From positions 36,275 to 100,274 of IMG/VR virus record IMGVR_UViG_3300011114_001049: DNA of 64,000 nucleotides; one strand, given 5' to 3'. Every line of letters begins with the position of its first letter. Within the stretch, counting starts at the first letter, position 1. A program made the position numbers and the translations under genes. This document shows positions 8,505 through 36,471 of this stretch, piece after piece. The notes beneath the pieces were generated by a model. That model saw only the letters and a list, made by a program, of their open reading frames with translations. It searched no databases and was not told where the DNA came from. This DNA comes from a virus.

Positions 8505-8767
8505 AAACATTAAAATCAACTATCGTAGGTGTAGCTGTTGTTGCAACTCTAGGATTAACATTAGTAACGTGCACTAATAAAAAATACAAGTATAAAATTA
8601 AGGGGCAAGTGAGAGTTCCTAAGTCAGATACTACTATATTACATGATGCTATTTGGTATACTGACACCATCAGCTTTGACGAAGATACTGCTTATTATTT
8701 TAACAGCGATGGCTCAGAAGTTAGGATACATCCGCCTTTTATTTTGATAAATAATACCAAAAAATAA
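8501..8767 (+). CDS. secreted or lipoprotein-like hypothetical protein
   Basis: Hydrophobic signal ending LVTC. Confidence 0.55.
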   Translation: MKTLKSTIVGVAVVATLGLTLVTCTNKKYKYKIKGQVRVPKSDTTILHDAIWYTDTISFDEDTAYYFNSDGSEVRIHPPFILINNTKK

Positions 8768-11167: not shown

Positions 11168-11195
11168 AAAAACCCCTTTATTCAAGGGGTTTTTT
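11168..11195. terminator. intrinsic terminator hairpin, potentially bidirectional
   Basis: AAAAACCCCTT-TATTC-AAGGGGTTTTT at the end of the 11178 gene. Confidence 0.75.
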
Positions 11196-11516
11196 ATTTT
11201 CCTTTAGATAGTCTTCTAAAATTTTTACAATTTCATCAATCTCATATCTAGCTTCATCACTAACCAATTTAAAATTTTTGTATTTGAAAAGAAATAACCA
11301 AAAGAATGCAAAGTGAATTAAGAGCATAAGAAATAAGGTAGCTATTGTGATTCCCAACATACATAAGACGGGTACTCCAAACGTTATTAGGTAAAACACA
11401 AAATTAAAAATTTCTGTATTAGCAATAGATAAAAACTTATATTGCCAAATCACCCTTTTTAATTTGTTTGGCGGTAAGTCTTTATGTAAGTCAGCTTCTT
11501 CTTTGATTTTAGACAT
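11178..11516 (-). CDS. membrane protein with 2 TM segments (start probably ATG 11516)
   Basis: Hydrophobic core; a promoter motif lies at 11539-11565, inside the longer track ORF. Confidence 0.65.
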   Translation of the reverse strand: MSKIKEEADLHKDLPPNKLKRVIWQYKFLSIANTEIFNFVFYLITFGVPVLCMLGITIATLFLMLLIHFAFFWLFLFKYKNFKLVSDEARYEIDEIVKILEDYLKENKKPLE

Positions 11517-11538
11517 AATCGTAGTTTTTAATAATATT

Positions 11539-11565
11539 ATTATACTAAATAGAAGCAATTAGTTA
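11539..11565 (-). promoter_or_regulatory. class-II promoter motif TAAC-N17-TATAAT
   Basis: Same geometry at 7 intergenic sites. Confidence 0.55.
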
Positions 11566-11615
11566 AATAATTACTCCACTTAAAACCCAACAAATAGTTC
11601 TTAGTTAAATATAGT

Positions 11616-11686
11616 TAGAGCCTGACACTAGTCGGCGCTGAGTCCTTTGGGCTTTTGAGTTGTCTTAGGCAGCAATAGCGTCGGCC
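11616..11686 (+). ncRNA. putative structured 5' leader (three-way junction) plus a 10-nt segment complementary to the 3' UTR
   Basis: P1 11631-39/11677-85, P2 11640-45/11649-54, P3 11659-64/11668-73 with 6 G-U pairs; TAGAGCCTGA complementary to 12484-93. Confidence 0.55.
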
Positions 11687-11706
11687 ATAAAAAAACAAGG
11701 TAAAAT

Positions 11707-12474
11707 ATGTACACATCAAATTCAACTGCGTCTAACTCGACGCCCACTGCTAATATTGCAGTAAATCGAAATCGCCTTAAGCATTACACAGGCGATCTAG
11801 TCTATTTAAAGGATGGAACTCATTTTGAAATAGAACTATACAACCCAAAAACCTTCAAGGTCCTGGCTAAAATCTTAGTCAACGGCATAAACGTCTCCGC
11901 TGCAGGCATAGTCATTAGGCCTGGAGAAAGAGTCTTTTTAGAAAGATGGCTGGACAAGTCTAATAAGTTTCTATTTGAGACTTATGAAGTAGACGATTCT
12001 CTAGAGTCTAGAGAAGCAATAGCTCAAAACGGTAAAGTAATAGTTGAGTTCTACGATGAAGTTCAACAAGTAAGCCAGTTCAATCTAGTTGGTCCAAGCA
12101 CGACTGTAAACTCGCTCCTCTTAACTGACTCTCCGACTTGGACAACTAATCCTGTCTATACGGGCACGACTAGCACTCCGTCTTTTGGAGGAACTACTGT
12201 AAATTATTCTACTCAAACGATTGGTGCAAACGCAAGTATAGCAGGTAGTTTGGAAACAGGTAGGGTCGAGAGCGGAGAATCTTCAACTCAAGAATTCTCA
12301 TCAGACTTTACAGGCTTTAACTATTGGATAAATCACAAAGTAGGAATAACTCTCCTACCTGAATCACAAAAGCAGGTAGAAGTAAATGAGATTCGAAACT
12401 ATTGTACTGAATGCGGAACCAGAATGAAGGCAAAGAGCTGGAAGTTCTGTCCTACATGCGGCACAAAAATATAA
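11707..12474 (+). CDS. beta-sandwich-like protein with C-terminal zinc ribbon
   Basis: CTECG...CPTCG; Ser/Thr-rich linker. Confidence 0.75.
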   Translation: MYTSNSTASNSTPTANIAVNRNRLKHYTGDLVYLKDGTHFEIELYNPKTFKVLAKILVNGINVSAAGIVIRPGERVFLERWLDKSNKFLFETYEVDDSLESREAIAQNGKVIVEFYDEVQQVSQFNLVGPSTTVNSLLLTDSPTWTTNPVYTGTTSTPSFGGTTVNYSTQTIGANASIAGSLETGRVESGESSTQEFSSDFTGFNYWINHKVGITLLPESQKQVEVNEIRNYCTECGTRMKAKSWKFCPTCGTKI

Positions 12475-12496
12475 ATTTTAAAATCAGGCTCTACTG

Positions 12497-12522
12497 AAGG
12501 ATCTCTAGTGAGGTCCTTTTTT
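12497..12522 (+). terminator. rho-independent terminator
   Basis: AAGGATCTC-TAGT-GAGGTCCTT followed by a T run. Confidence 0.75.
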
Positions 12523-12533
12523 GTTTAGGTAGA

Positions 12534-36213: not shown

Positions 36214-36471
36214 TTATTCTGATTTTGATTGTACTAAGTCCCACAAATAGTCTGATTCAAATGATATTCCACCAATCATATCTTCTGTAGGTTTTTCAAT
36301 TGTTACATCTACTTTAGGTTTCCAATCTGGATTAACTTTCTGAAATTGTTTGATTGCATCACGTACCATACTTGGAGCGTATGTATGTCTTCCATCAGCA
36401 TATCTTATTGCCATCCATATAACTTCATCAAAGCAATGAGATAATGTTTTTATTTGTTGATCCTTTGTCAT
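36214..36471 (-). CDS. hypothetical protein
   Basis: Ends KSE* like the 35270 gene. Confidence 0.7.
   Translation of the reverse strand: MTKDQQIKTLSHCFDEVIWMAIRYADGRHTYAPSMVRDAIKQFQKVNPDWKPKVDVTIEKPTEDMIGGISFESDYLWDLVQSKSE

Follow-up and report, generated by a model that had tools for sequence, protein, structure and literature searches.

The virus genome fragment analysed here, a window of 64,000 nucleotides (positions 36,275 to 100,274 of IMG/VR record IMGVR_UViG_3300011114_001049), carries on its plus strand a gene for a 255-residue protein whose message is predicted to be paired end to end. Positions 11606-12525 of the window are probably best explained as one self-contained transcription unit with a conserved cis-acting messenger RNA (mRNA) architecture, in which the 5' and 3' ends of a single-gene transcript pair with each other and a three-way-junction (Y-shaped) leader of 55 nt separates the paired 5' end from the ribosome-binding stretch. 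Homologous genes of other large phages carry a leader of the same shape and end pairing in different sequences.

A three-way-junction leader specific to one gene

In the window, the leader occupies positions 11631-11685 (+) and folds as had been claimed from the sequence, with a closing stem of 9 bp (P1, 11631-11639 with 11677-11685) around two 6-bp hairpins at 11640-11654 (P2, 11640-11645 with 11649-11654) and 11659-11673 (P3, 11659-11664 with 11668-11673), the junction strands UUGA (11655-11658) and AAU (11674-11676), and six G-U pairs overall. Folding of this sequence alone gave a weak signal (z = -1.16 against shuffles), and the complementarity of the arms at the two ends of the transcript was matched or exceeded by 2 of 100 shuffles, which is likewise weak for a single sequence; the case for both features therefore rests on the homologous loci. 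Eighty of these were gathered from viral contigs and another 80 from metagenome contigs fetched separately, with a few contigs present in both sets.

Inspection of the homologs revealed leaders that hold the Y shape while their sequences change. A first covariance model, built from 14 close leaders, gave one match per locus, directly upstream of the homologous gene, at more than 40 unique viral loci, and a single match in the window (11612-11709). A second model, run on the metagenome loci, found the leader in 78 of the 80. The window record and four records of 81-100% completeness (207-349 kb) each contain one strong leader match, always at the homologous gene, and the leader is also present in the huge phages LR756500, LR745206, LR756504 and LR756501 (460-735 kb; E values from 6e-9 to 1e-5). 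The link between leader and gene holds down to about 30% protein identity and across phages of 100-735 kb. The leader motif is single-copy per genome and specific to the homologous gene. No significant match was obtained in the Lak phages (L085 and L170) or in LR756508 (L086), even with the filters off, and locus L095 carries only a degenerate version.

In two leader alignments, both fitted to the model, 95.7 and 93.6% of the stem cells are paired; sliding the 3' partners by 1-3 columns lowers this to 37-48%. Double changes were observed in 14 and 16 of the 18 leader pairs, respectively, amounting to 169 and 334 double-change cells versus 56 and 119 in shuffles, and the observed covariation score was not reached by any of 500 shuffles. 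RNAalifold, applied to the alignment, predicts the same junction independently, and 13 of the 15 pairs covary. G-U pairs recur at fixed positions, in particular as UG at the top of P3 (68 of 75 distinct sequences) and as GU in P1 (57 of 75); read from the opposite strand, the same positions would give A-C mismatches, which identifies the plus-strand RNA as the selected molecule. The view that selection acts here on RNA rather than on DNA, first suggested by the G-U pairs of the window, is thus borne out by compensatory changes and by the fixed positions of such pairs. Conserved unpaired positions are few (about eight), with U.GA between the hairpins and A.GA entering the closing stem both invariant, while both hairpin loops are free in sequence and length. 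Taken together, the comparative data indicate that the three-way junction of the leader is a real RNA structure maintained by selection.

A search of Rfam 15 with the window returned no match at the gathering score, and the segment 11560-11730 gave noise only (E = 5-10); the architecture of this leader RNA is uncatalogued. Hammerhead and other self-cleaving cores were considered and rejected, as on inspection their junction strand lengths and sequences do not fit and Rfam gave no match up to E = 10. One of the options raised originally was a riboswitch-like element, and a ligand sensor would indeed be in keeping with a compact three-way junction that has conserved junction nucleotides and lies upstream of a start codon. 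It is improbable, given that no Rfam family matched even at E = 10, that both loops vary and so few unpaired positions are conserved, and that the gene has no metabolic role suggesting a ligand. Moreover, there is no expression platform, the folds containing neither an alternative terminator nor any pairing with the ribosome-binding stretch.

Pairing between the two ends of the message

Upstream of the junction lies the 5' arm of a long-range helix (TAGAGCCTGA, that is, UAGAGCCUGA; 11616-11625, +) at the predicted 5' end of the transcript, and its exact reverse complement, the 3' arm (TCAGGCTCTA, that is, UCAGGCUCUA; 12484-12493, +), starts 10 nt past the stop codon and ends 2 nt before an intrinsic-terminator-like hairpin. 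The original prediction had placed these arms, together with a TAAATA box at 11606-11611, and all of its coordinates are correct. The exact arm 10-mer occurs in the window at these two sites only. Both the minimum free energy (MFE) fold and the centroid fold of the full 911-nt transcript contain the panhandle formed by the two arms, the junction and the terminator (z = -3.15).

At homologous loci, the 3' flank of the gene complements the sequence that stands before the junction of that locus, whatever this sequence is. Arm pairing was scored by our own local pairing alignment over 99 unique loci, for which the cognate arms gave a score sum of 3018, compared with 1765 +/- 54 when arms were permuted among loci (z = 23; maximum of 1994 in 5,000 permutations) and with 1577 in a direct-repeat control on the same loci. 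Helices with at least nine uninterrupted pairs are present in 79 of the 99 loci. Clustering of uninterrupted helices of at least 9 bp produced 18 groups, about 15 of them convincing and mutually unrelated in sequence, as illustrated by CUGGGGAGCCA/UGGCUCCCCGG, GAGCCUCGCUC/GAGCGGGGCUC, AGAGCCCUUCUG/CAGAAGGGCUCU and, in a 462-kb phage, UCUCACUUUGUU/AACAAAGUGAGA; in this phage, with a protein only 35% identical, the match is a different one of 12 bp, TCTCACTTTGTT with AACAAAGTGAGA. The helix core GAGCC/GGCUC is nearly invariant and, with the helices anchored there, columns -2 to +8 are paired in 83-100% of cases by several pair types each (in column +6, CG 12, GC 11, TA 2 and AT 1). One-nucleotide bulges are tolerated even within the core, and the helices are free to shift in register and in length (9 to 29 bp, with 10-14 bp in the clade of the window). 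The distance from the stop codon to the start of the 3' arm is 4-13 nt where the long-range helix exists, and LR745206 has an 8-bp arm match at the expected positions. The structural reading of the original prediction, a single-gene transcript with pairing 5' and 3' ends, therefore holds, since both of its parts are conserved through compensatory changes; leader structure and end complementarity, whose absence from homologous loci would have spoken against it, are found there far beyond chance.

Concerted change of two inverted copies would imitate such covariation, which raises the question of a DNA-level inverted repeat, with the arms acting as paired protein-binding or recombination sites (operators, or the ends of an invertible segment or cassette) that co-evolve with a DNA-binding protein. 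Several 5' arms are palindromic and operator-like, and the neighbouring genes vary among loci as they would around a mobile cassette. Nevertheless, when non-Watson-Crick positions inside the helix that have two pairs to either side are counted by distinct context, eight are G-U and two A-C (a count that supersedes the 27 and 14, respectively, given by a permissive alignment). This excess of G-U, the bulges in the core and the location of both arms inside the transcript, between promoter box and terminator, favour an RNA helix over paired DNA sites. In addition, the adjoining junction, in which G-U pairs are fixed, is certainly a structure of RNA, the drift of the helix in length and register is not what paired sites would lead one to expect, the conserved promoter lies outside the repeat, and there is no recombinase gene beside the unit, all of which makes the DNA-level explanation very improbable.

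An RNase processing stem, also among the options raised at the outset, would account for the pairing of the 5' and 3' flanks of one gene in another way, namely by RNase III cutting the message from a longer transcript, as in rRNA precursors and T7 early mRNAs. Some lineages have about 25-29 paired positions, with gaps, which would suit this enzyme. RNase III, however, needs roughly two helical turns (about 20 bp or more of near-continuous duplex), and the 10-14 bp of the window and its clade are well below that requirement. The unit, moreover, has its own promoter box and terminator, and the lineages with local hairpins described below offer 5-6 bp only. Processing by RNase III, unlikely for a 10-bp helix, thus has little probability.

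Local 5' hairpins and the terminator

Several lineages without a 3' arm have a local hairpin instead. In one large lineage, ACUAGA-GGUU-UCUAGU abuts the junction and has no 3' complement, whereas UUAGAG-GCUUA-CUCUAA or UAGAG-CCUAAA-CUCUA is found at the same spot in others. Local hairpin and long-range helix are both possible in about 44% of the loci, the clade of the window having lost most of the local option. As the local hairpin takes over from the long-range helix in these lineages, base pairing of the 5' end seems to be the common denominator of the sequences and the trait under selection. A further type of long-range pairing (type D), based on a weak complement to the terminator loop (score of about 22), was tried and discarded, since in that large lineage the loop varies and the 5' hairpin is constant.

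The choice between two partners for the 5' arm is one of two features that recall a hok-type fold-back, proposed among the original options as 5'-3' sequestration, in which the 3' end keeps the 5' end inactive until 3' trimming activates translation: the ends of a monocistronic mRNA do pair, and a refolding switch is conceivable in the loci that allow both structures. The pairing, however, leaves the ribosome-binding stretch and the start codon free. In the window, the spacer between junction and gene (11686-11706, +) is unpaired in all folds and A-rich in all aligned homologs, and it includes a Shine-Dalgarno-like AAGGU (11697-11701). The product, rather than a small membrane toxin, is a soluble-looking beta-sandwich protein of 255 residues with a zinc ribbon, and a promoter scan of the leader showed no antisense promoter besides the divergent promoter-like site of the upstream gene itself. 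Sequestration of this kind is extremely improbable.

The terminator-like element of the window (12496-12525, +) consists of a hairpin (12496-12519) and a U-run. Several lineages have a long-range helix that continues immediately into the U-run and overlaps or replaces the terminator hairpin, as in CUGGGGAGCCA...UGGCUCCCCAG followed by U-runs, in CAGAAGGGCUCU followed by six U, and in helices of 22-29 bp ending in CUUUUA. Where the helix abuts the U-run, the terminator hairpin may take its upstream strand from the 5' end itself. It is also conceivable that the 5' arm is held in a weak local hairpin until the 3' arm emerges about 870 nt later, and then enters the stronger long-range helix. The proposal that the 5' end of the message serves to check for full length, and that some lineages use it as one half of a split terminator, is rather doubtful; if true, both termination and end protection would require the 5' end to be intact.

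Promoter box and position of the 5' end

The TAAATA box of the window (11606-11611, +) lies inside AGTTAAATA and resembles a -10 element. A TAWAWW box (TAAATA, TATATA or TATAAT) is found at the same spot in about 90 of the 99 unique loci, its end lying anywhere from 2 nt inside the paired segment to 6 nt before the first nucleotide of that segment, and several homologous loci carry the exact late-type sequence GATAAATAA or TATAAATA. In T4 late promoters, transcription starts about 6 nt after a TATAAATA-like box; with a start at this distance, the first nucleotides of the RNA would belong to the helix. Many homologous loci (e.g., L034, L049, L004 and L084:1320-1360), including that of the 462-kb phage, also have a conserved (G)AACTTT box, without a clear counterpart in the window, at 12-15 nt upstream of the -10-like box; it may be an upstream promoter element.

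The sequence GATAAATAA is abundant in the window's own genome (12 copies versus 2.3 expected), with copies at window positions 8746, 12534, 15166(-), 15229, 17284, 20014, 21833, 39314(-) and 44740 among them. Most copies are followed by a start codon at 4-25 nt, and GATAAATAA is probably the late-promoter motif of this phage, giving very short leaders. The leader region of the studied gene, at about 90 nt, sets it apart from such neighbours.

A working model of the message and the points that weigh against it

Transcription would start a few nucleotides after TAAATA, so that the helix includes the extreme 5' end. The pairing of the two arms closes the monocistronic message into a panhandle, with the unpaired, A-rich ribosome-binding stretch following the junction. 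A paired 5' end, together with a paired and terminator-capped 3' end, would shield the message from 5'-end-dependent decay and from 3' exonucleases, and the outcome would be a long-lived, full-length, translatable mRNA. Because of its invariant nucleotides, its fixed G-U pairs and its constant link to one gene, the junction would most likely serve a protein as its docking site, and this protein, which may be the product of the gene itself acting through its conserved basic N-terminal domain, would adjust translation or decay. The structural basis of this explanation (leader fold, end pairing, conservation and exclusive gene link) is strongly supported, and its mechanistic steps are inferred from that basis; as a whole, it is judged probable.

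Several observations weigh against this explanation or limit its reach. The leader pair counts come, as stated, from model-fitted alignments. The helix of the window has only 10 bp, and the spacing between 5' arm and junction, which ranges from 0 to 10 nt among loci, argues against one rigid composite fold. The box of the window (TTAAATA, GTTAAATA) differs from the GATAAATAA abundant in the same genome, which leaves its promoter class uncertain, and the extension of the helix to the 5' terminus would follow from a promoter-like box combined with the T4 late-promoter geometry. Finally, LR756504 and LR756501 keep the junction with no detectable 5'/3' complement. This last finding makes the junction, and not the closure of the message, the most conserved part of the architecture, and also the part whose role is least understood; judged by its distribution among the sequences, the junction is the oldest and most constant element.

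The encoded protein and the possibility of autoregulation

The coding sequence (11707-12474, +; stop codon at 12472-12474) specifies a protein of 255 residues with an N-terminal beta-sandwich, a disordered Ser/Thr-rich linker and a probable zinc ribbon at the C-terminus. Its homologs share a conserved N-terminal domain, a variable Ser/Thr/Gly-rich linker, an ETGR..G..S.Q block, an ILPES block and a C-terminal ribbon, and in the N-terminal domain a basic motif is invariant (N20, N22, R23, K25 and Y27). A collagen-like Gly-X-Y run, GPTGPSGVQGVDG, occurs in the variable linker of homologs P0005 and P0014 (alignment columns 160-200). The zinc ribbon had been recognized from the sequence, and this assignment is probably right: the C-terminal CxxC...CxxC cysteines (C233, C236, C248 and C251) are invariant in 28 homologs. 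The Pfam family Zn_Ribbon_1 (PF13240) matches with 22.9 bits, which is below its gathering cut-off of 25, but precomputed annotation assigns PF13240 to many of the homologs. In the AlphaFold model, residues 14-118 and two strands further along form a beta-sandwich; the model also has the ribbon and a disordered linker.

More than 1,400 relatives are found in public metagenomes, nearly all of them nameless. PHROGs has no family for the protein, the ESM Atlas returned viral hypothetical clusters only, and a DNA search of the phage collection gave no match. Protein searches recovered named phage records with the gene from Lak megaphages and uncultured huge phages only, in all of which it is unannotated. 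Among solved structures, the predicted fold matches generic Ig/MSP-like beta-sandwiches only (Z of about 6), with no function indicated. In BFVD, it matches uncharacterised proteins of large eukaryotic DNA viruses (E = 1e-8 to 1e-4), including those of pithovirus, marseillevirus, relatives of mimivirus and nudiviruses, as well as ISKNV ORF098, ranavirus ICP-18 and WSSV wsv390. From these model comparisons, a module of beta-sandwich and zinc finger may be shared by phages and giant viruses, or this may merely be a common fold.

The homolog of LR745206 (635 kb; L167:1405-2427) has the same N-terminal domain, with a SHOCT-like C-terminus in place of the zinc ribbon, and keeps the leader. The junction is therefore independent of the ribbon, which cannot be the essential RNA binder. 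This result bears on the proposal, made in the original prediction, of autoregulation by the zinc-ribbon protein: binding through the ribbon is weakened, while binding by the protein's own N-terminal domain stays a candidate. In its full form, the proposal makes an autoregulatory operator the main function, the protein binding the junction or the GAGCC-core helix and repressing its own translation, with end pairing secondary. There are precedents in T4, where gp32, gp43 and RegA repress their own messages. The single-copy motif with its strict, far-reaching gene link, the invariant U.GA and A.GA, the fixed G-U pairs, the nearly invariant GAGCC/GGCUC core and the combination of an invariant basic N-terminal motif with a zinc ribbon would all be expected of such an operator. 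On the other hand, the beta-sandwich is of a generic Ig/MSP-like type with no nucleic-acid-binding relative in the fold searches, the SHOCT homolog keeps the leader, and the ribosome-binding stretch lies outside the junction. As the main function, autoregulation is a minor yet real possibility; it is compatible with the end-protected message set out above, and the two do not exclude each other.

Genomic context

The source record is an IMG/VR virus of 100 kb with a CheckV completeness of 36%. The window has a GC content of about 35%, its genes include a T4-like portal protein, a split family-B DNA polymerase and a helicase, and no tRNAs were found in its 64 kb. The phage is a large, freshwater, T4-like one. 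On the upstream side, a small membrane-protein gene (11178-11558, -) shares a divergent intergenic region of 148 nt with the studied unit. This region contains AGTTAAATA twice, 42 nt apart (11561-11569 and 11603-11611), and the two copies may be tandem promoters. On the downstream side, the neighbouring genes vary by locus (L004, L017, L021, L022, L030 and, in the window, 12547), and many of them, including the VanY-type peptidase of the window, open with a similar N-terminal peptide, M..Y/HI/V.LFES or LYES.

Relation to known systems and significance

To our knowledge, experiments have shown conserved long-range pairing between the 5' and 3' parts of bacterial-type mRNAs for a few single genes only. 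The hok mRNA, with its fbi-tac pairing, resembles the phage message in that the ends of the full-length molecule pair and yield a compact, stable RNA; as the mRNA of a type I toxin-antitoxin system it differs from the phage unit, which has no small toxin, antisense RNA or occluded translation signals. The E. coli ompA leader owes its stabilising effect to a 5'-terminal stem-loop, a paired 5' terminus without single-stranded overhang. The phage lineages with local hairpins are similar in this respect, whereas most lineages obtain the partner strand from about 870 nt downstream. The translational operators of T4, namely those of gene 32, gene 43 and the RegA targets, are likewise structured leader elements, and like the junction, which occurs in a T4-like phage, they are specific to one gene. 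The junction differs from them in its three-way fold and in having the ribosome-binding site outside the structure, and its repressor is a candidate only.

The closest experimental precedent is the hbs mRNA of B. subtilis, in which a 14-bp interaction linking the 5' untranslated region (UTR) with the 3' UTR modulates RNase Y cleavage, endonuclease access and stability (Braun, Durand and Condon 2017, PMC5737220). The likeness lies in the base pairing of 5' UTR with 3' UTR in the same transcript. In hbs, this concerns a single bacterial gene with experimental support, whereas the phage pairing is known from sequence, through covariation over about 100 unique loci. Unlike that of hbs, the phage helix is located at the presumed extreme 5' end, adjoins the terminator and is accompanied by a conserved three-way junction, and some lineages swap it for a local 5' hairpin. 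In S. aureus icaR, the 3' UTR pairs with the Shine-Dalgarno region, which blocks translation and creates an RNase III site (PMC3868564). Here, too, a 3' UTR pairs with its own 5' UTR, the difference being that the ribosome-binding stretch of the phage message stays free.

The comparative evidence strongly supports the structural architecture as real and widespread, and it belongs to the known theme of 5'/3'-UTR interaction. What is new is that about 15 helix sequences keep pairing across hundreds of uncultured large phages, beside a three-way-junction RNA absent from the catalogues. The covariance model is ready for annotating the leader in the genomes of jumbo and huge phages, and the element flags a widespread viral gene, so far without a functional name, as being under unusual expression control. 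These phages thus provide a natural and sequence-diverse system for the effects of paired mRNA ends on decay, termination and translation during infection.

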